NCBI GenBank assembly: GCA_035363255.1 | Contig: DAOSES010000006.1 | Location: forward strand, 25,544-89,543 | Direction of reading: 5' to 3' | Source of the DNA: Caldisericia bacterium | Lineage (GTDB): Bacteria; Caldisericota; Caldisericia; UBA6126 | DNA: 64,000 bases | Shown: piece by piece, positions 4,762 to 63,975 of the stretch | How positions within the stretch are numbered: the stretch's first letter is position 1 | Layout of the letters: every line of letters begins with the position of its first letter | Notes under the pieces: generated by a model | Told to the model about the DNA's origin: nothing | Database searches by the model: none | The model's input: only the letters and a program-made list of their open reading frames with translations | Position numbers and translations under genes: made by a program

Positions 4762-6284
4762 TGAAACGTGTCCTCGCTTTCTGTTGTAAGATGGTTAATA
4801 TCCTTAATCCATTTACCATTAAACATGATTAATTCAGGGACAAGGGCAGGTAAACGGGAGGAAGGAATCGAAAATAAATCTTCTTTCAAAAAGAACATAT
4901 CAGCATAATTTCCAAGCTTTATCGCACCTTGAAACATCTGAGCTGATATACACTCCGCTCCAGCATGAGTATAACAATAAAAGGCCTTTTTTCGACTCAT
5001 AAAAGTTTCAGATGCTTGGATGTTTTTAAATGGATTAATGTCTTCAATTGGCGAATCTGTGGAAAGGGATACTTTAAGATTTTGATCGATCATCGCTTTA
5101 AAGGGATATGCTAATTTGTGAAAGCGTTGCTCAGAAAGACGTTTGATTGCCATTTCTTTGTCAGCATGATAAAAAATGCTTTGAATCGATAAATACAAAG
5201 ACAATTTGTTAATCAGATCAAGCTGTTGGGAGGATGCCATTTGCACATGGATCAAACGATGTTTCAGGTTTAGGTTGTTGATCTTACTGTTTTTAAAACT
5301 TTCAAGATAAACTTCTAATGCCTCATCGCCAATTACATGAAAAGCAGTCGACCATCCGCAGCGCTCTGATCTGTGCAAGATATCTTGTAATTCGTTCGAG
5401 GAATAGTATAAAACTCCTTTAGTCTTGGGTTCATCAGCATAAGGAGAGCTTAGGTAGGCACTTCTCCCCCCCAGAGAGCCATCCAATATGAATTTGAATG
5501 AGGAAAGGGATAGAAAGGGGGTACTTCGATAATAAAATGAGAGAGTATCGGGATTCATAATTTCTTGGTAGGAAAAGGGTGGAGAAAGATTAAGGTGTTC
5601 ATAAATACGCAAATCAGTTTGAGCATCCAAAAGAGATAGTAAGTGCTGTGCGCTTGATGTATTCCAGTCATCGGTATGAACTGATGAGATCCCATAGCTT
5701 TTACAAAGATTTGTAGCTTGCTCCAGACAATCTTGCAAATGCTTTTTGCTATACTTGATACAAGCTCTTGCAAAATCTAAAACTCTTTCTTTGATGACTC
5801 CTTCTTCCAAATTGCTTTCATCTACTTGATGAAACTTTTCCAACTTAAATAGCTCAATGGCTTTGGTATTTACATAGCCAATATGTCCACATTTTCCAAT
5901 CAGTAAAACAGGTCGTTGTGCTTCCAGTTTATCCAAACACAAACGATTCATCGTATATGGTAGCGAGTCAGGGATCCAACCGCGCAAACAAAGCGTTTCT
6001 TCATCAAGTTTTTTGAAGATTTCTTTTAGCTCCTCCATGCTACTCACAAGCTCCAGGGAGGGCTCGATAAGCTTTCTTCCAGTGCCGATCAAATGGCAAT
6101 GCGACTCGATAAAAGATGGATAAGCAAAATAAGCACTAAGGTCGATCCAAGGTTCTGCTTCTTGTTCGTTCAGATGTGAGTCTATTGCCTTGATCATGCT
6201 TTGCTCTATGCGAAGATCACAGCGCTTGAAGCTTTCTTCCAGAGGATCGTATATATTCACTTGTTTTATCAACATATGGCTCAT
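4758..6284 (-). CDS. Amidohydrolase-family metal-dependent hydrolase (TIM-barrel).
   Basis: Metal-ligand motif SHCHL near the N-terminus and HVIGDEA later. Start placed at MSHMLIKQ; the upstream extension of the ORF track lacks an RBS and reads as nonsense. Confidence 0.7.
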   Translation of the reverse strand: MSHMLIKQVNIYDPLEESFKRCDLRIEQSMIKAIDSHLNEQEAEPWIDLSAYFAYPSFIESHCHLIGTGRKLIEPSLELVSSMEELKEIFKKLDEETLCLRGWIPDSLPYTMNRLCLDKLEAQRPVLLIGKCGHIGYVNTKAIELFKLEKFHQVDESNLEEGVIKERVLDFARACIKYSKKHLQDCLEQATNLCKSYGISSVHTDDWNTSSAQHLLSLLDAQTDLRIYEHLNLSPPFSYQEIMNPDTLSFYYRSTPFLSLSSFKFILDGSLGGRSAYLSSPYADEPKTKGVLYYSSNELQDILHRSERCGWSTAFHVIGDEALEVYLESFKNSKINNLNLKHRLIHVQMASSQQLDLINKLSLYLSIQSIFYHADKEMAIKRLSEQRFHKLAYPFKAMIDQNLKVSLSTDSPIEDINPFKNIQASETFMSRKKAFYCYTHAGAECISAQMFQGAIKLGNYADMFFLKEDLFSIPSSRLPALVPELIMFNGKWIKDINHLTTESEDTFQ

Positions 6285-8219: not shown

Positions 8220-8660
8220 TTACTGTTCGGGCAAGCCAATAAGGTGTAAAAAACCAAGACTTGCCAAAGTAACGATGATACCTGCAAGACAAACTCCAAG
8301 TAGAATCATGAGCAAGGCTGTGCCTTTGGATAATCTTAAAATCCAAGCTAAAAGCGAACCAGTCCAGGCACCTGTTCCTGGAAGGGGAATGGCTACTAAT
8401 AGAAGCAAACCCATATATCCAAAACGAGATATCCATGAGGCTTTTTGCATGGGCTTAGAGGTAAAGAGCTTCCACTTTCGTAAAAAAGGCAATCGATCAA
8501 ATCCATATAAAATAATTAGGGGTGGTATCATATTCCCCAATAATGATAGTACAAATACGATCAACCAGTGCATACGATGAAGACCTATTCCAAAGGGAAT
8601 AGAAACTCGTAATTCCCCAACAGGTGTCATCGCCAATAAAAAGATCGTTACTGCATCCAT
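8220..8660 (-). CDS. Putative small multidrug export protein family (COG2426) membrane protein.
   Basis: 146 aa, 4 TM helices, PVGELRVSIPFGIG...PLPGTGAWTG motifs. Confidence 0.65.
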   Translation of the reverse strand: MDAVTIFLLAMTPVGELRVSIPFGIGLHRMHWLIVFVLSLLGNMIPPLIILYGFDRLPFLRKWKLFTSKPMQKASWISRFGYMGLLLLVAIPLPGTGAWTGSLLAWILRLSKGTALLMILLGVCLAGIIVTLASLGFLHLIGLPEQ

Positions 8661-20768: not shown

Positions 20769-20840
20769 ACCCCAAAAGTATAGCACAGCATAGCGTAAAA
20801 AAGCACAAACAAACTATTGTTATAGATACATTGATTCATA

Positions 20841-21206
20841 GGGACGGGGGTGTTGACTCAATGACACCAATGACGTTAAACACTCTTGAATACAGCATAA
20901 AGAACAAAAGCAAAGATACTCGCAAGCACCGAAAATCTATAATTTTACGATAGGTATGTTTTGAAGCAATAGCCAGTAAAGCTTTATGAATAAAGAAATT
21001 ATATGTGATATGACAGTTTTTGAGAAAACTTAAAAAAATAAAAACTTATAAAAAGCACCATAAAGATTGATTAAAAGTGATTCTGTGGTTTACCTACACA
21101 ATTATCCCTGCTTTACTTACTTGGTCCCAGAAAAGATTAAAAACCTTACTATGACTATATTTAAATGAGTGAAAAGTGAGTCAACACCCCCGTCCCTCTG
21201 ACTCAA
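20841..21206. mobile_element. MITE-like non-autonomous element, copy A (about 366 bp). It has perfect 20-bp terminal inverted repeats (GGGACGGGGGTGTTGACTCA), an AT-rich interior and no ORF.
   Basis: Left TIR 20841-20860. Right TIR 21177-21196 is the exact reverse complement, followed by a conserved tctgactcaa that closes a 7-bp hairpin (tgagtca/tgactca). Confidence 0.8.
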
Positions 21207-21250
21207 TTTATAATCAAACAGGCAGAGCTCCTCGCAGATGAGCTGAATGA

Positions 21251-23917: not shown

Positions 23918-24072
23918 TTTTTTGTTACCATCTTTAGATAGCTCCAGCATTCCCACACCCCCAACCTTCCTCCTTATTGTTTGCATTTATTTTATTACTT
24001 CTTTTACTTGATACAAGCTTTAGAGTGTACGATAATCCAAGGATGAATGTAAGAAATTTTATCTGATACACA

Positions 24073-24440
24073 GGGACGGGGGTGTTGACTCAATGATACC
24101 AATGGCATTAAACTCTCATGAATACTCCATAAAGAACAAAAGCTAAAATACTCGCAAGCACCGAAAATCTATAATTTTAAGATAGGCATGTTTCGAAGCA
24201 ATAGCTAATAAAGCTCCATGAATAAAGATAATACACGTGATATGACTGTTTTTGAAAAAACATAGAAAAAATAAATAATTATAAAAAAGTACAACAAAAC
24301 CACTTGAGAACTAATTCTGCGGTGCACTGAAATATTTGCCTAGCTTTAAGTTATTAAATCCATGAGAAGATTAAAAGCCTTACTATGACTATATTTGATT
24401 GAGTGAAAAGTGAGTCAACACCCCCGTCCCTCTGACTCAA
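24073..24440. mobile_element. MITE-like element, copy B (about 368 bp). Same orientation and the same perfect 20-bp TIRs as copy A; the interior has diverged.
   Basis: Left TIR 24073-24092; right TIR 24411-24430 plus tctgactcaa. The first 200 bp or so are about 85 % identical to copy A; the centre is divergent. Confidence 0.8.
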
Positions 24441-27080: not shown

Positions 27081-30000
27081 TGAAAAGTTTTGGAAAAGCT
27101 GTTTCCAGACTCTTATCCTGGATTATCGTAGCCTTGCTCTCGTTGGGGCTAGCCCTGCCTTTCGGTCCCAGGCCTGTGAAAGCTCAAAGCAGCACTCTGG
27201 CAGACCTATACCTTGATTTGCCTTTCAACTACCGTATGGAAGCCTTCAAGCCCAAGTTTAACCTTGAAGACTACCAGCTCTTTGAAAAGTTTTTTTTACA
27301 TGCGAGTTTGTTTGAAAACCGATATATTCTCAAACGTTCCTATTTTGCCAATTACAGCAAATCTTTTACCTTGATAGACAAGCGTAGTAATGATTTTTAT
27401 ACCCTCCATCTACAGATTTTAAGCTACCTGGTCTTGGAAGATAAGGATAAGATTGAATCGGGGATTCCTTTTTATTTGTCTTTTATCCAAAACTCCCAAG
27501 GGCAAGCTCTGGCCTTTATCCATCGTTCGGAAATGTATGATTTCCCCTTGTATGGCGTGCTTTGTGAAAGCGATGGAAGTTTGATCAAGGAGTGGGAGCT
27601 GTCAAAAAAACCCAATTTAAGTACGTATTCCTATTTTACTCTCTATCAAGAGCTAGCTTCAGATTTGACAAATTCTGGTATGCAGGCCTTTAACAAACCG
27701 CTCAGTGCTTTGTTTTCTGCTTGGATGTGGGGCACTTATCTGAGTGAGCAGAATATACAGACTTCCAACCCCAATCCCTATACCTGGGACTTGCTCGGAG
27801 TTCCCAAAGAGCGAGATGATTTGATGGCTTATTGCTCCGAACAATATCTCATGGAGGAAACCGTGTATTCCTGGAACGAGGATGATTCTCTGCAAGCACT
27901 ACAATGTATTCAAATCCTTTTTCAGGATAGGCGGGAGCTTAGCCAAACTACTTTCACATTTGATCGATCGTATCTTGTGCATCACCCCAATGAAACTATG
28001 GTTTATCTTCCCCTGCTTCAGGTAGTGACGCGTCAAGGTAAAGGCTCCAGTGGAGCCGCTCTATCTGGACTGAAAGATGCTCAAGGCAGGTGGAATTTTT
28101 GGATTCAAGGTAATTTTTACTTTTCAGATCAGACTTATCTGAGATCCCCATCTCTTTATCATACCTTGTTTTCTGGCTATCCTGCTTCTGATAGTTCTTA
28201 TGTGCATTATCTTACGACTCTTGGACTTGCTCTCTATCAGCAAATAGATTCTTCTTGTCTTCCTATGATAGTTTTGTCCCATGCGATTGCGCTATATGAA
28301 GCCAATACTTATAAGAATACAGCGCATACAGCTGATCTTGCGCTAGAAGAACAAACCATGGCTCCTGTTCCCCGAGGAAAACACGCTCATTTGTATCCTG
28401 ATGCTGAAGTTTTTGCAAAGCAGTTTGCTGAAAATACCGAAGTTCAGTCTGACACTCTGGAATATTCCAAAGAGGACTTGGATCAATTAGTACATTTATT
28501 CTTAAACTCAGTTAACAAGCAAGATAATGAGCTTGCATCCTATGATTTTACTCTTCACAAATCGTTTCGCCTTCTCGACCAGAAAACTAAGCAAAGCTAT
28601 CGCTTTTTGCCCAGTTTTAACCTTACGGTCAAGTTTAAAAACCATTCAAGCTTTCCTTTTTTCTCAAATTCTGCCCTTCAATTGCCCGATAAGACCTGGC
28701 TGATTTACACTGGTTATGGTAGCCTCTGTTTCAAGAGTGGTTTTGTAAGTGATTTAGCTTCATGGCCATCCATGAGTATGTATTTAAGCGAGATATATCT
28801 CTCCTACCTACTTCATTATAGTTACCTGCTTCGAAAGCCAATCACCAACGAAGAGCTGAGAGATTTTACTTTCCTCTTTGGGGCAATGTCATGGAGTAAG
28901 TTTGATCAATTGACGAGAGTCATGCCTTATCCAAGCCTAAAAAAGACAACATTATCTTCCGCCAACATGGTGGTAACTGCCAAACCCCGTAAGGTGCAAA
29001 GAGGTGCGAATTATTATATCGACATGCGACTCACTAAAAACCTGGAAAAGAGTGAATGGATCAAGATAAAGTTTCCCAAAGCTTGCGTTTTCCCCTCTCA
29101 AGAGGGCACCAAACCACCAGGAGACCATCTTCCCGAATACATGGAACTCGACTACGAAAACAACATTATAACACTTACCCTTATGAAAAAACTCTTCATA
29201 AAAGAATATGAGGATGGTTGGATACGTATTACTATTCCTGATGTTTATGGCTTCAAAAATCCTCATTTGAGTGGAGCTTATTATTTTGAGTTTTCTACCT
29301 CTGCTGAGATCGAGTGGCAAAAGTCAGACTCAGTCTTGTTTGTGGAAAGCCGTATAGGAGTGCCTGAAGGTATTCCTGAAGTTAACACTGTTCCAAGTAT
29401 CGCAGGGCAAAATGCAAGCTATACGATAGCCTTTAATGTTGGTGAGGGTGGATGGCTTAAACAAAATGAAGCCCTTATAAGGCTCAGATTTCCCAAAGAT
29501 ACGGCATTTTCCATCAATCAGATCCCTGGCGAAATGATTTTAGTTAATGGAGTCCCTTTATCTGTTCGCCCCTCTCCCAGAGGGCAAAACCTTATTTTCA
29601 ACACTCCCGTGGAAGTCGAAGATTCTGAGAGAGTGGTGATCCAGATTGATGCTAAAGCGGGAATTATCAACCCTGCGCAAGCGGGAGACTATACTATTGA
29701 AGTATCCACCCTGCCTGCAGACCCTGAGTGGGTAGCTTCCAAAGCTTTTACGATTAGTCAATCATTCGCTATGGAAGTCAAACCGAGAAAAATAGGGAGC
29801 TCTGCAAGCTATAATTTCACTTTTGAAATAGAAAAAACTCTGGAAAGCTCGGATTGGATTAAACTTGGCTTCCCTCAAGGTACCATCATTGATCCTCCCA
29901 TCCCCGAGCAAGAGCCCGAAAGGACGCTACGTTTAAAAAGATTCAATGAGATTATTGTTATTGGACTTTCTCCTTGTGGTCCTTGTCCAACTCTTCCCAA

Positions 30001-36781: not shown

Positions 36782-37549
36782 TTGAATCCGAAGAATTTAG
36801 TTGAAGCAAAAAAGGTGGTCAAAGGCCTCTTAAAGAACGAGCTTCGAGAAACCCATCTACGTTCAAACAATATCGATACCAATTCAGCAATTTTGCAATC
36901 AGATAAGATTTTTTGTCTGGTTCAATATATGGATAAAATCCATGACGACCTAAATCACATCTTGCCTGAAACAGCTACAAAGATAAATTGGAATAGCTAT
37001 GTACTTCTCGAAAAAACAGTCTTTGAATCCTACGCTGAACAGCTTGAAAATATAAAAAAAGAGCGTCCTGCCAAGGGGACGGTAGTTTTTGTATTACGAT
37101 CTGGCGAAGTCTATATGATTTCTCCCTATGCTCTGATGGATTTTTTAGATGAATACCCTCTATTGGTAAATATTGAAAAAGTGGAATACTTTTCTTTTCC
37201 CACAATTTTCCTCCAGGTGCCTGATGGAGCGCCTCGATCAGAAGAAGAGCTTGAAGCACAGCATCGTATTGCTTTAATCTCTCAAATCAACAGCCTTAAA
37301 CCCGCAGAAGTTGAAGATTACGAATTAGACGACGAAGACCTTGACGAGTATGAAAGAGATTTTTATGCCTCCTTTTTCTCTGATAGGTCCAGAAAAGGCT
37401 TTTCGCCTGATCTTAGATCCAAATATTCTGAGCTTGCTGACGATGATATTCGAAATATTACTATCCATCTCCTCTACGAGATGTCTAAAAATCTTACTGA
37501 GATCCGAAAAGAACTAAAAAGCATAAAAAAAATCATTAACGGTCGATAA
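36782..37549 (+). CDS. Hypothetical protein with an acidic C-terminal region.
   Basis: TTG start with strong RBS GGGAGGAAG. No recognised motifs. Confidence 0.5.
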   Translation: MNPKNLVEAKKVVKGLLKNELRETHLRSNNIDTNSAILQSDKIFCLVQYMDKIHDDLNHILPETATKINWNSYVLLEKTVFESYAEQLENIKKERPAKGTVVFVLRSGEVYMISPYALMDFLDEYPLLVNIEKVEYFSFPTIFLQVPDGAPRSEEELEAQHRIALISQINSLKPAEVEDYELDDEDLDEYERDFYASFFSDRSRKGFSPDLRSKYSELADDDIRNITIHLLYEMSKNLTEIRKELKSIKKIINGR

Positions 37550-58968: not shown

Positions 58969-58992
58969 CAATTGGGGACGGTTCTTTTTTGT
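58969..58992. repeat. GGGACGGTTCT-box intergenic repeat, copy 1 (caattggggacggttcttttttgt), immediately after the fprA stop.
   Basis: 23 of 24 nt identical to the reverse complement of 63949-63975; the 11-mer core also occurs at 60040-60050. Confidence 0.6.
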
Positions 58993-59161
58993 CAATCGAA
59001 AACTAAAACGGCAAAGTTTTAAAGGCTAGTCTAAGCTCCATGAGCACTGATATATATAGTTATGCATGAAAATGTATAACTCTACTATATGTAAAATAGG
59101 AATTCCTTATTTGCTAAAATTATATGCAATAGTTTGATATTTCATATACGGAGGAAACCTC

Positions 59162-60040
59162 ATGAATAGAAACGAAATTCAAAATATCTCTTCAAGTCAA
59201 ACTCACTATATTATACGTCCAGTCGAGGAAAATGATTACTCCGATGTTGTAAAGATATCTAAGGATATCTGGGATGGCAATGACTACGTGCCAAAGATTT
59301 TTCATACTTGGCTGAATCAGGCAGGTCTTTTCATTGGCGCAGAAGATTTTTCAAGCAAAGAGCTTGTTGCAGTAAGTCATGTGGCACTATTACATGATGG
59401 TTCAGCTTGGTTGGGTGGTCTTCGTGTACGACCTGACCATCAAGGAAAAGGGATAAGCCACCTGATGATTAAGGCTCAACTTGAGTATGCCCTGGAAAGG
59501 CTTCACCAAGGATTAGTAAAGCGCATTGCTTGTGCCATCTTTACTAAAAATGAAGCTAGCAAACATTTATGCTTATCTTACGGTATGCAAATTAAACAAA
59601 GCTATCTGATTCTCAGTTGGAATGAGGATTGCAAGCCTCGACCTCTTCAAGTGGAACCCTGGGAGCCAAGCTGGGAAGAAATCGAAGCTTTGCCCTATTT
59701 TAGGGATAGCGAGGGACTTATTATTCAATACTTCAAAATGCAGAAAATCAGTCAAGCTTGGTGGGAGCAAGCGAAAAAGGATTTTCAGCTATTTAAGATC
59801 AATGGCACTCGGGGTTGGATTGAACAGAGCCAAGAACCTCACTGTATTGTGCTGGAACCCTCCGTTTCCTCTATTCACGACTGGTTGCAATTTGCCAGCG
59901 AACGTTTTGGAGAAGATGCAAATACGGTAATATTTCCTAAGCCCAGTCTGGTCGAGGAGTTAAAACAAAGCTCTATAGAAGCATGGTCAGAATGGGAGTC
60001 CGATTGCCTTTACTTTGTTTATGAACCTAAGAACAAGTAG
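59162..60040 (+). CDS. GNAT-family N-acetyltransferase-like protein.
   Basis: VRPDHQGKGISHLM matches GNAT motif A (Q/R-x-x-G-x-G/A). 292 aa, so probably two GNAT-like lobes. Confidence 0.55.
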   Translation: MNRNEIQNISSSQTHYIIRPVEENDYSDVVKISKDIWDGNDYVPKIFHTWLNQAGLFIGAEDFSSKELVAVSHVALLHDGSAWLGGLRVRPDHQGKGISHLMIKAQLEYALERLHQGLVKRIACAIFTKNEASKHLCLSYGMQIKQSYLILSWNEDCKPRPLQVEPWEPSWEEIEALPYFRDSEGLIIQYFKMQKISQAWWEQAKKDFQLFKINGTRGWIEQSQEPHCIVLEPSVSSIHDWLQFASERFGEDANTVIFPKPSLVEELKQSSIEAWSEWESDCLYFVYEPKNK

Positions 60041-60056
60041 GGACGGTTCTCATTTG
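60040..60056. repeat. GGGACGGTTCT-box, copy 2.
   Basis: gggacggttctcatttgt directly after the TAG stop of the GNAT gene. Confidence 0.5.
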
Positions 60057-60092
60057 TTGTTGAGTACCACAAACCTCGAATCGATGGGGCAT

Positions 60093-60119
60093 GTGCCAAA
60101 GGGATGGGGGTGTTGGCAC
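60093..60119. repeat. Hairpin with loop AGGGATGGGGGTG and a 7-bp stem (gtgccaa/ttggcac). It is related to the MITE terminal hairpin by loop identity and compensatory stem changes.
   Basis: The reverse complement of the MITE right-end hairpin is tgagtca-GAGGGACGGGGGTGt-tgactca; here it is gtgccaa-AGGGATGGGGGTG-ttggcac. Confidence 0.55.
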
Positions 60120-60120
60120 G

Positions 60121-60156
60121 TTAAAATGTCGCAAGTGCTGGATCCCCGTGTGACAT
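60121..60156 (-). terminator. Rho-independent terminator (repeat module copy 1) for the 722-aa beta-propeller gene.
   Basis: Minus strand reads atgtcaca-cggggatccagcact-tgcgacat + TTTT, abutting the stop codon. About 36 nt shared with 62355-62389. Confidence 0.65.
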
Positions 60157-62354: not shown

Positions 62355-62389
62355 CAAAATGTCGCAAGTGCTACGTCCCCGTGCGACAT
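62355..62389 (-). terminator. Rho-independent terminator (repeat module copy 2) for the 511-aa lipoprotein gene.
   Basis: Minus strand reads atgtcgca-cggggacgtagcact-tgcgacat + TTTT, 7 nt after the stop. Confidence 0.65.
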
Positions 62390-63948: not shown

Positions 63949-63975
63949 ACAAAAAAGAACCGTCCCCGATTGTTG
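63949..63975. repeat. GGGACGGTTCT-box, copy 3 (reverse orientation), in the 5' leader of the lipoprotein gene.
   Basis: Reverse complement reads aacaatcggggacggttcttttttgtt, followed by the RBS and ATG of 62397..63932. Confidence 0.55.

Follow-up and report, generated by a model that had tools for sequence, protein, structure and literature searches.

We conclude with good confidence that the hairpin at positions 60092-60120 of the stretch analysed here, a 64,000-nt part of contig DAOSES010000006.1 of a Caldisericia bacterium (referred to as the window), is a copy of a repeat resembling the repetitive extragenic palindromes (REPs) and belongs to a Y1 (HUH) transposase system of the RAYT (REP-associated tyrosine transposase) and TIRYT type; the steps of single-stranded DNA (ssDNA) recognition, which we infer, are part of this statement. 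The units of this family (type 1) are 29 nt long: the loop, RGGGACGGGGGTK, takes up 13 nt, and the 5' and 3' arms on its two sides have 8 nt each. Copies form the ends of two miniature inverted-repeat transposable elements (MITEs) in the window, and in other genomes and metagenome contigs inverted copies flank the gene of a Y1/HUH transposase. The unit under study is the following.

60092-60120, + strand: type-1 hairpin unit, TGTGCCAA-AGGGATGGGGGTG-TTGGCACG

Positions 60093-60119 read GTGCCAA-AGGGATGGGGGTG-TTGGCAC, a perfect 7-bp stem enclosing a 13-nt loop, and addition of the outer T:G pair gives the 8-pair unit. The existence of the hairpin is far beyond chance. As ssDNA the unit folds with -6.2 kcal/mol (z = -3.2), and the covariance model R1 described below, whose seed contains this sequence, scored it at 39 bits. 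The loop motif AGGGAYGGGGGTG was matched exactly five times in the window, at the four MITE ends and at the hairpin site; with up to two mismatches allowed there were eight matches compared to 1.19 expected, a number reached in none of 100 shuffles. The sequence RGGGACGG occurs eight times in the window (1.4 expected by chance). A search of the window against Rfam 15 at the gathering threshold gave no matches, and a literature search with the loop sequence returned only unrelated hepatitis C virus papers. The hairpin is identical in six other metagenome contigs, which come from the same strain and are thus silent on constraint, as they hold no comparative information.

The two MITEs of the window and their terminal units are listed below.

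20832-21205: MITE copy 1 (374 bp), with inverted type-1 end units and a non-coding AT-rich interior, between divergent genes
20832-20860, + strand: left terminal unit of MITE 1, TGATTCAT-AGGGACGGGGGTG-TTGACTCA, with a degenerate 5' arm and no stable fold
21177-21205, - strand: right terminal hairpin of MITE 1, TGAGTCAG-AGGGACGGGGGTG-TTGACTCA, identical to the units flanking the Y1 gene in metagenome locus L077
24064-24439: MITE copy 2 (376 bp), between divergent genes
24064-24092, + strand: left terminal unit of MITE 2, TGATACAC-AGGGACGGGGGTG-TTGACTCA, with a degenerate 5' arm
24411-24439, - strand: right terminal hairpin of MITE 2, TGAGTCAG-AGGGACGGGGGTG-TTGACTCA

The mean column identity of the two copies is 87% over a 473-column alignment that includes ∼40-55 bp of flanking DNA per side. 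Their left ends have the same loop and 3' arm as the right ends, with degenerate 5' arms; the right-end units fold as ssDNA (z = -2.7), while the left-end units, with the arms TGATTCAT and TGATACAC, do not. The MITE loop can be described as 15 nt on a 7-bp stem, or as 13 nt with an extra G.T pair.

When the hairpin at 60092-60120 and the MITE hairpin were aligned on the loop, the pairing register was the same and 22 of the 29 bases were common. Four of the eight stem pairs are identical (pairs 2, 4, 6 and 7), pairs 3 (A:T to T:A) and 5 (T:A to C:G) show compensatory double changes, and pairs 1 and 8 are changed on one side. The shared bases and the common register identify 60092-60120 as a homologous copy of the MITE-end unit, and no further 29-mer in the window lies within nine mismatches of either sequence. 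Two window matches, at 27759-27787 and 37064-37092, were set aside as probable chance matches, as they are stemless and located inside long open reading frames (ORFs). The original prediction, made from the sequence alone, had read the perfect 7-bp stem at 60093-60119 correctly. Its statements that this site is unrelated to the MITE and that the two stems differ at essentially every position do not hold in view of the homology. The tgagtca/tgactca hairpin that it placed at the MITE terminus is present at the right ends, which fold, although its loop had been transcribed wrongly by one T and the left ends form no such structure.

To follow the unit beyond the window, a collection containing one genome per species was scanned with the pattern AGGGAYGGGGGTGTTGNCNC, which constrains the loop and part of the 3' arm and leaves the 5' arm free. 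The scan returned 39 loci, compared to ∼35 estimated for chance. In six of these (L012, L014, L035, L038, L039 and L040) at least six Watson-Crick pairs could be formed with the free 5' arm, the chance estimate being ∼0.16; two further loci, L017 with five pairs and L034 with four, were included because of their context. The loci of the family are labelled as three Bacillota metagenome-assembled genomes (MAGs), Oscillospiraceae, Sedimentibacter, Syntrophaceticus schinkii, Desulfovibrionaceae and one Cloacimonadota MAG. The last label belongs to a 3-kb contig (L038) that carries the exact MITE hairpin together with a unit identical to one of the type-2 units of the window (described below); either this contig was mis-binned, or the element is common to different phyla in digesters. 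Looser scans of the family loci revealed more copies nearby, and the loci fetched contain 99 distinct unit sites, with TGAGTCAG, TGTGCCAA, TGTGTCAG or CGTGACAA as 5' arms.

The unit was also found in Caldisericia-like metagenome contigs. A metagenome scan for the MITE-type repeat yielded 35 loci, and the Caldisericia-like contigs contain many MITEs of 335-421 bp with inverted units at their ends. Solos, tandem arrays, inverted doublets and MITE termini were all observed. In the Bacillota chromosome OY762825.2 (L014), four tandem units with a 33-nt period occupy positions 5056-5191 (- strand), starting 2 nt past the stop codon of a 934-aa ORF, and further solos are present at 682 and 4479; the solos have the stem TGTGCCAA/TTGGCACA, which is that of 60092-60120. 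Downstream of the tandem units, at 4840-4960, there are short repeats rich in GACGG/GGAGGTGACG. The units of the window (five of type 1 and two of type 2) all lie between ORFs, and the ten units of the Natronincolaceae locus L081 all lie between called genes.

The stem was then scored over eight pairs in 63 distinct 29-mers from the family loci, which had been chosen by the loop only. Paired cells made up 76% of the total, compared to 14-46% when the 3' partner was slid by 1-3 columns. Double changes were found in 42 cells (23.5 ± 4.1 in shuffles) and the covariation score was 0.217 (0.145 in shuffles), neither value being reached in any of 500 shuffles; since the shuffle control ignores relatedness, these numbers are supportive and do not constitute a formal test. 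Pair 3 is A:U in 27 units and U:A in 18, pair 5 is U:A in 19, A:U in eight and C:G in five (unpaired in 31 of the 63 units), and pairs 2, 4, 6 and 7 are near-invariant. Unit sites with and without a facing inverted partner were alike in pairing (6.4 and 6.3 pairs, respectively). The sequences indicate that the stem is maintained, though not strictly. Model R1 was built from the same 63 units, with the five known copies of the window in its seed; applied to the window, it recovered these five and gave weak matches at 60127-60155 and 62360-62388 on the - strand.

The mean number of pairs was 6.1 in the family units, as opposed to 3.3 (maximum 6) in 32 distinct chance loop matches outside the family, and this difference bears on the notion that a G-rich intergenic palindrome merely resembles the MITE ends by accident. 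In the collection, almost every match that has T at loop position 6 (the AGGGAT variant, which 60092-60120 also carries) is a stemless chance match, as such an accident would have it. Nevertheless, all eight stem pairs are formed at 60092-60120, 22 of the 29 bases agree in register with the MITE hairpin while the nearest other 29-mers of the window are more than nine mismatches away, and the same stem subtype is combined with the family loop in other genomes; we regard the probability of chance likeness as negligible. The original prediction of a structured motif that is reused, with its pairing kept by compensatory change, is thus supported by the paired cells and double changes, and the collection scan found further instances in other genomes. 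Its view that the terminal inverted repeat of a MITE is reused elsewhere should be turned around: the 29-nt unit is the basic repeat, and a MITE is a pair of units.

An all-against-all comparison of the ORFs in the hairpin-bearing loci identified a common protein encoded beside the units in L012 and L034. In L012 it is a 271-aa ORF located between inverted units, and it matched Pfam Y1_Tnp with E = 2.5e-15. In total, the unit accompanies a Y1/HUH gene of ∼253 codons in seven loci, and in the six complete ones inverted units are found on both sides. A protein that recognises DNA hairpins, which the original prediction had envisaged, therefore has a natural candidate. The occurrences are as follows.

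L012, L077/L098, L078 (two paralogs), L081 and L091: Y1 gene between inverted units, read on both sides
L034: Y1 gene cut by the locus end, only the upstream unit seen
L039: decayed element between inverted units, with a weak match (E 0.019) to the C-terminal part of Y1

The Y1 genes of the metagenome loci encode proteins of 252-254 aa that are 50-53% identical to the L012 protein, within elements of 896-898 bp. They contain the motifs NHVHLL, YLFQDRY and YIHQNP or YIFQNP, as well as weak C-terminal matches to the helix-turn-helix (HTH) families HTH_31, HTH_23 and HTH_38 (residues 224-252). Among solved structures, 4ER8 (E. coli TnpAREP) comes closest, at E = 2e-4, and the alignment matches the HUH and Y motifs. 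The L012 protein has 5806 relatives at E < 1e-10; among the 120 best of these, the named ones are called 'transposase' or 'REP element-mobilizing transposase RayT' and come mostly from Clostridia-type organisms. Three Y1 protein clusters originate from Geosporobacter. In plasmids, tblastn with the Y1 protein detected distant relatives at best (below 40% identity), giving no sign that this clade is plasmid-borne.

In L077 the Y1 gene is flanked by the exact hairpin of the window MITEs. Its product (HOI25654.1) is annotated as 'transposase [Caldisericia bacterium]', and MetK of the window (HOI24498.1) carries the same organism name; the gene also occurs in both samples of the window contig, JGI 3300009707 and SRR5007460. 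These names, accession series and samples, which stand in place of a closed genome, make it very probable that the window organism encodes the Y1 enzyme. The Caldisericia Y1 gene is present on seven contigs, shown as two places with the same downstream genes. When the window was searched by tblastn with the Y1 protein, neither the gene nor any part of it was detected, and the MITE interiors are no remnants of it. The MITEs are most likely non-autonomous pairs of units around non-coding DNA, built like the transposase-bearing element. In L078 two Y1 paralogs, 75% identical, are located 4 kb apart and have different outer arms, GTGCCA and TGAGACA. This recalls the rule for RAYTs, each of which is matched to a REP subtype of its own, and hints that the GTGCCA-stem unit at 60092-60120 may be of the other paralog's subtype.

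Upstream of both Caldisericia-type Y1 paralogs (L077 10169-10197; L078 4220-4192, - strand), the 3' arm TTGACT coincides with a -35-like hexamer. The promoter-like site is completed by a 17-nt spacer and a TG-extended TAGAAT or TAAAAT, with 10 of 12 matches. The putative recognition site of the enzyme thus overlaps its own predicted promoter, an arrangement that would allow autoregulation.

Several known systems were compared with the one found here. TIRtrons consist of TIRYT genes with flanking inverted repeats that carry the motif GGGGWSAS, and some of these repeats are self-complementary or occur in dimers or clusters (Di Nocera et al. 2013, PMC3733652). Quentin et al. (2018, PMC6006769) regarded the TIRYTs as equivalent to TnpAY1 subclass 2.1 and to the RAYT Group 1 of Bertels et al. 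(2017, PMC5581495). In their study, automatic and manual searches gave no REP-like hairpins for subclass 2.1; its Table 1 lists NHVH, FQ or W[EQ], Y..(L/.)NP, ∼238 aa and a C-terminal HTH-like domain for this subclass. The present protein agrees in its Y1/HUH core and length of ∼240-250 aa, in NHVH, FQ and Y..NP and in the HTH-like tail, an assignment made by motifs only. The gene flanked by inverted repeats with an initial G-run, the repeats elsewhere being single, dimeric or clustered, the self-complementarity of some repeats and a wide, patchy phyletic spread that includes Clostridia are common to both. In contrast, the type-1 units, GGGGACGG or GGGGGTGT (loop RGGGACGGGGGTK), do not match GGGGWSAS exactly; the motif is matched only by GGGGACAG, the loop start of a sister unit in L035. 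The description of subclass 2.1 has no counterpart of the flanking repeat found here, which forms a discrete hairpin of 29 nt, with a covarying stem around a conserved 13-nt loop, and is present at REP-like density in one genome and as MITEs in another.

With the REP/REPIN-RAYT systems of E. coli, Pseudomonas and Stenotrophomonas the family shares short extragenic palindromes in many copies, REPIN-like inverted doublets and BIME-like clusters. As in a REPtron, the cognate Y1 gene is flanked by inverted repeat copies, and each paralog is associated with a different repeat subtype. The single gene locus per genome that is typical of REP-RAYT systems may also apply: the Natronincolaceae gene is always beside recR, and the seven contigs with the Caldisericia gene show two places with the same downstream genes. 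Against this, two paralogs lie 4 kb apart in L078, and Geosporobacter contributes three protein clusters. The differences concern the protein, which is longer, has an HTH tail and scores below the NCBIfam RAYT cut-off, the hosts (Caldisericia and Clostridia, not Proteobacteria) and the site of conservation, which is the foot and stem in REPs and the large 13-nt loop here.

Elements of the IS200/IS605 group (IS608, ISDra2) also combine an HUH/Y1 core with end hairpins as recognition signals and produce no target-site duplication. However, IS200 TnpA has ∼150 aa and Y...Q, compared to 253 aa and Y..NP, and the ends of these elements have unlike left and right subterminal hairpins on the same strand and no inverted repeats, as opposed to the 29-bp inverted repeats found here; the Y1 protein reached 17.2 bits with the NCBIfam IS200 model (cut-off 55). 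Membership in this group was rejected on protein score, motif, length and end architecture. MITEs derived from DDE-type elements resemble the window copies in size (374-376 bp here), terminal inverted repeats, non-coding interior, intergenic location and multiple copies. This class was rejected as well, since no target-site duplication was seen and the element with the same ends encodes a Y1 enzyme; moreover, the terminal repeat forms a hairpin and is also found as a solitary unit. The nick sites of HUH Rep proteins combine a conserved loop with a stem whose pairs may covary. The likeness to these hairpins of rolling-circle plasmids and CRESS-DNA viruses or geminiviruses is one of logic only, as the enzyme class differs and no replicon is involved here; a cut within the loop, as in the HUH Rep hairpins, is suggested here only by the junctions after GGGACG described below. 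The system works like REP/RAYT and the TIRtron and is best filed with the latter, as a selfish or domesticated repeat and not as a new regulatory RNA. New is a defined hairpin class with a 13-nt loop, common to Caldisericia and Clostridia (and other phyla as labelled), with REP-like density and MITE derivatives.

REP-like density is seen in the Natronincolaceae genome (L081), where the Y1 gene is always found beside recR: 10 units are present within 8.7 kb, among them a triple tandem array and inverted doublets of ∼100 bp. Comparison with a second Natronincolaceae locus (L089) showed an inversion polymorphism between metagenome samples (L081 4800-6215). The inverted segment of ∼1.2 kb, carrying the NERD and DSBA genes, is bounded by two of the ∼100-bp inverted doublets and lies beside the Y1 gene. 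Flanking direct repeats, indicative of target-site duplication, were sought at more than 25 distinct inverted-pair elements, and none were seen. Truncated modules consisting of a 5' arm and RGGGACG, joined directly to a complete unit, were found at five places in four loci:

L081 4763-4840: truncated module
L081 7203-7250: truncated module
L059 ∼2280-2320 (= L078 ∼8330-8360): truncated module
L062 820-860: truncated module
L091 ∼4780-4810: truncated module

The break always follows GGGACG. The two 5' arms in L062 are unlike each other, so the module there did not arise by simple slippage. The break may be the footprint of a strand-joining point, which makes it a possible candidate for the cleavage or joining site. 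It was also considered whether the 5' arms represent a palindromic insertion target, since the outer arms of the Y1 elements match at both ends. However, outer arms are similar among MITE copies at separate loci and unlike at the two ends of other MITEs, so that the arms appear to be a quickly changing part of the unit and not target DNA.

The following course of events is proposed, modelled on IS608 TnpA and E. coli TnpAREP. When the DNA becomes single-stranded during replication or repair, the unit would fold into a stem-loop, and a Y1 dimer would recognise the shape of the stem and read the conserved bases of the loop. The enzyme would then cut and rejoin one strand through a 5'-phosphotyrosine intermediate, possibly after GGGACG, and units, or the DNA between two units in the case of MITEs, would be moved or copied in trans without target duplications. 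A stem read by shape and a loop read by base would explain why the loop is near-invariant and the stem covaries.

A number of observations count against this scheme or limit its reach. The fold, the folding strand and the cut site are what we infer from related systems. The best NCBIfam match of the Y1 protein, the REP-associated tyrosine transposase model (NF047646), scored 71.8 bits and missed its cut-off of 80, and the canonical 5' GT[AG]G foot tag of REPs is absent from the units. About 24% of the stem cells in the 63 units are unpaired, at many element termini the 5' arm is of another subtype and faces the constant 3' arm TTGACTCA, and the numbers of G.T and A.C cells (34 and 26) reveal no strand asymmetry except at the closing pair. 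With pairing this imperfect, a hairpin may not be strictly required, and pairing between two terminal repeats or recognition of double-stranded DNA may take its place. Empty sites for MITE 1 and MITE 2 were sought and none was recovered, the flanking proteins matching only the contig of the window itself, which leaves the boundaries of the mobile unit approximate. MITE 2 occupies the same site in a 96%-identical strain. In that strain (L095 3229-3330) synteny with the window stops ∼10 bp outside the right end of MITE 1 (window 21206-21216), and a DarT/Macro (DarTG-like) gene pair takes the position of MITE 1 and a large glycosyltransferase gene.

The tolerance of imperfect pairing at many termini would suit a different arrangement, in which the arms are half-sites of a double-stranded operator for a dimeric protein, for instance the HTH tail of the Y1 protein acting as an autorepressor, and no hairpin is extruded. 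The arms do form an inverted repeat, TG[AT]GNCA...TGNC[AT]CA, and both the overlap of the 3' arm with the -35-like hexamer upstream of the Y1 gene and the weak C-terminal HTH match fit an operator. Half-sites, however, would be expected to be conserved in sequence and not to covary (A:T to T:A; T:A to A:T or C:G), and it is the asymmetric 13-nt spacer that is conserved best. HUH/Y1 enzymes of solved mechanism act on ssDNA hairpins, and the closest structure here is 4ER8. We therefore consider an operator improbable, though less so at the Y1 promoter, and retain the transposase-linked hairpin repeat as the explanation.

The immediate surroundings of the hairpin raise the question of a function in RNA. 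The unit lies in a 115-bp gap between convergent genes, in which a second, type-2 unit is located.

End at 60040, + strand: GNAT acetyltransferase gene, left neighbour of the hairpin
60127-60155, - strand: type-2 hairpin unit, TGTCACAC-GGGGATCCAGCAC-TTGCGACA followed by TTTT, abutting the stop codon of the minus-strand gene
End at 60156, - strand: gene of a 722-aa beta-propeller protein, right neighbour of the hairpin
62360-62388, - strand: solo type-2 hairpin unit, TGTCGCAC-GGGGACGTAGCAC-TTGCGACA followed by TTTT, in a 72-bp gap between two minus-strand genes

The unit at 60127-60155 is a diverged inverted partner, separated from the type-1 unit by 6 nt and matched weakly by R1 (9.6 bits). 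Together they constitute a 64-bp inverted doublet filling the convergent-gene gap, and given this neighbour the copy at 60092-60120 is no true solo. The RNA fold shows long-range pairing between the two, and each lies in the sense orientation of the gene just upstream of it. The type-1/type-2 arrangement recurs in L038 and L056. The second type-2 unit, at 62360-62388 (12.1 bits with R1, also weak), is a close relative of the first (TGTCRCAC-GGGGAY..AGCAC-TTGCGACA, then TTTT), and other copies are found in L038 (2839-2867, a 29-mer identical to 62360-62388), L056 (∼7631) and L057 (∼5138-5166). Type 2 and the main family have arms of equal length and loops of 13 nt that begin with GGGGAC.

In both cases in the window the type-2 unit lies directly 3' of a minus-strand gene. 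The 3' arm of 62360-62388 (GCGACA) also forms the first hexamer of a promoter-like site with an 18-nt spacer and TATAAT, just upstream of the Shine-Dalgarno sequence of the next gene.

Such positions could mean that the unit serves chiefly in RNA, as a cis-acting element that terminates transcripts or stabilises mRNA 3' ends and is under selection for its RNA fold, and that its link to mobile DNA is incidental. The hairpin and its type-2 partner each stand just 3' of a convergent gene in sense orientation, units directly follow stop codons in L014, L012 and L081, and TTTT occurs within 3 nt downstream at 30 of the 99 distinct sites; E. coli REPs are known to stabilise upstream mRNA. An intrinsic (Rho-independent) terminator, with a GC-rich stem, a 3-8-nt loop and a T-run, was nonetheless not called by the consensus scan: the stem has 7-8 bp, the loop has 13 nt, and 60092-60120 is followed by GTTAAAATG, with no T-run. 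Taken as a whole, the intergenic region folds no better than shuffles do (z = 0.11 on the + strand and -0.73 on the - strand), and Rfam offers no match. Units also occur in both orientations as termini of MITEs and Y1 genes, in divergent promoter regions (MITE 1 and MITE 2) and in tandem arrays. A near-invariant 13-nt loop across phyla would be unexpected for terminators, and the association with the Y1 gene would be left unexplained. A primary role in RNA thus appears unlikely. As a by-product of the repeat system, by analogy with E. coli REPs, the copy at 60092-60120 may serve the convergent genes as an RNA hairpin at their 3' ends.

Whether this particular copy is still active is a separate matter. 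Its loop has T at position 6, where at least 90% of the 63 family units have C, and a change at such a near-invariant position means that the copy may be inert, a further point against extending the scheme to this site. It could be a fossil, the leftover end of a decayed element whose perfect stem was inherited from another subtype. The strong divergence of the partner at 60127-60155 agrees with this, and all recovered copies of the site come from one strain. In addition, the GTGCCA/TGGCAC stem is found independently in L014, in L056 at 6463 and in the outer arms of one of the L078 Y1 paralogs (L078a); as this subtype exists elsewhere, the two 'compensatory' differences that set it apart from the MITE hairpin may have originated somewhere other than at 60092-60120. 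Against an inert relic stands the stem, which is still perfect (seven Watson-Crick pairs and T:G) when the chance matches average 3.3 pairs and never exceed six, and a related solo in L056 keeps seven pairs despite two loop changes, hinting at stem maintenance. A fossil is a minority possibility that we take seriously; it concerns the present activity of one copy and is compatible with the family-level explanation by a transposase-linked repeat. The copy at 60092-60120 is probably an old, possibly inactive representative of the GTGCCA/TGGCAC stem subtype.

Other short repeats were noticed along with the units. A third one, YAACAATYGGGGACGGTTCTTTTTTGT, occurs at gene boundaries at 58969-58993 (+ strand), 60031-60063 (+ strand) and 63949-63975 (- strand), giving three copies in the window, with three more in related contigs (L048, L056). 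It has CAA...RGGGACGG...TTG in common with the hairpin family, has short AACAA/TTGTT arms and is often preceded by CCCC, which can pair with the GGGG of the repeat; one copy overlaps the stop codon of the GNAT gene, ∼50 nt upstream of the hairpin. In L035, at ∼4955-5074 (- strand), two copies of a sister hairpin type, AATGTCAA-GGGGACAGGTACA-TTGACATG, are located ∼90 nt apart beside a perfect type-1 unit. Finally, a sequence of ∼243 nt ending in ...GCTTTTGGTAGCTAT-TGTACGAG abuts the hairpin unit in many contigs, and the DNA beyond the unit differs (L052, L053 and L061 at positions 1-243; L056 at ∼7700; L071 and L078-L080; L077 at ∼14290). An Rfam search of L052, L053, L061 and L077 matched a lysine riboswitch only, with no match for the ∼243-nt sequence, which could mark a hot spot or the terminus of a further repeated element.

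A bolder proposal, which we put forward tentatively and hold to be less probable than its opposite, is that the unit represents the first defined REP class for TnpAY1 subclass 2.1 (Group 1), the largest RAYT group. The 13-nt loop, and not a GTAG foot, would then provide the specificity, and the enzyme would nick within the loop after GGGACG, as Rep proteins do at origins. Such a unit might be common to Caldisericota, Bacillota and possibly Desulfobacterota and be the source of solos, arrays, REPIN-like doublets and MITEs alike.

For the REP/RAYT field, the family provides a concrete candidate substrate for a large Y1 group that has had none so far, together with natural stem variants and hybrid and truncated forms. 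The same organism offers matched non-autonomous derivatives, and binding, cleavage and mobilisation experiments can be designed directly. In the window, four intergenic regions (those with the two MITEs, the hairpin doublet and the solo type-2 hairpin) are filled by one repeat system. When Caldisericia and Clostridia MAGs are annotated, contig breaks and local inversions can be attributed to the units, as can recurrent intergenic hairpins that look 'conserved' and could be mistaken for regulatory RNAs.

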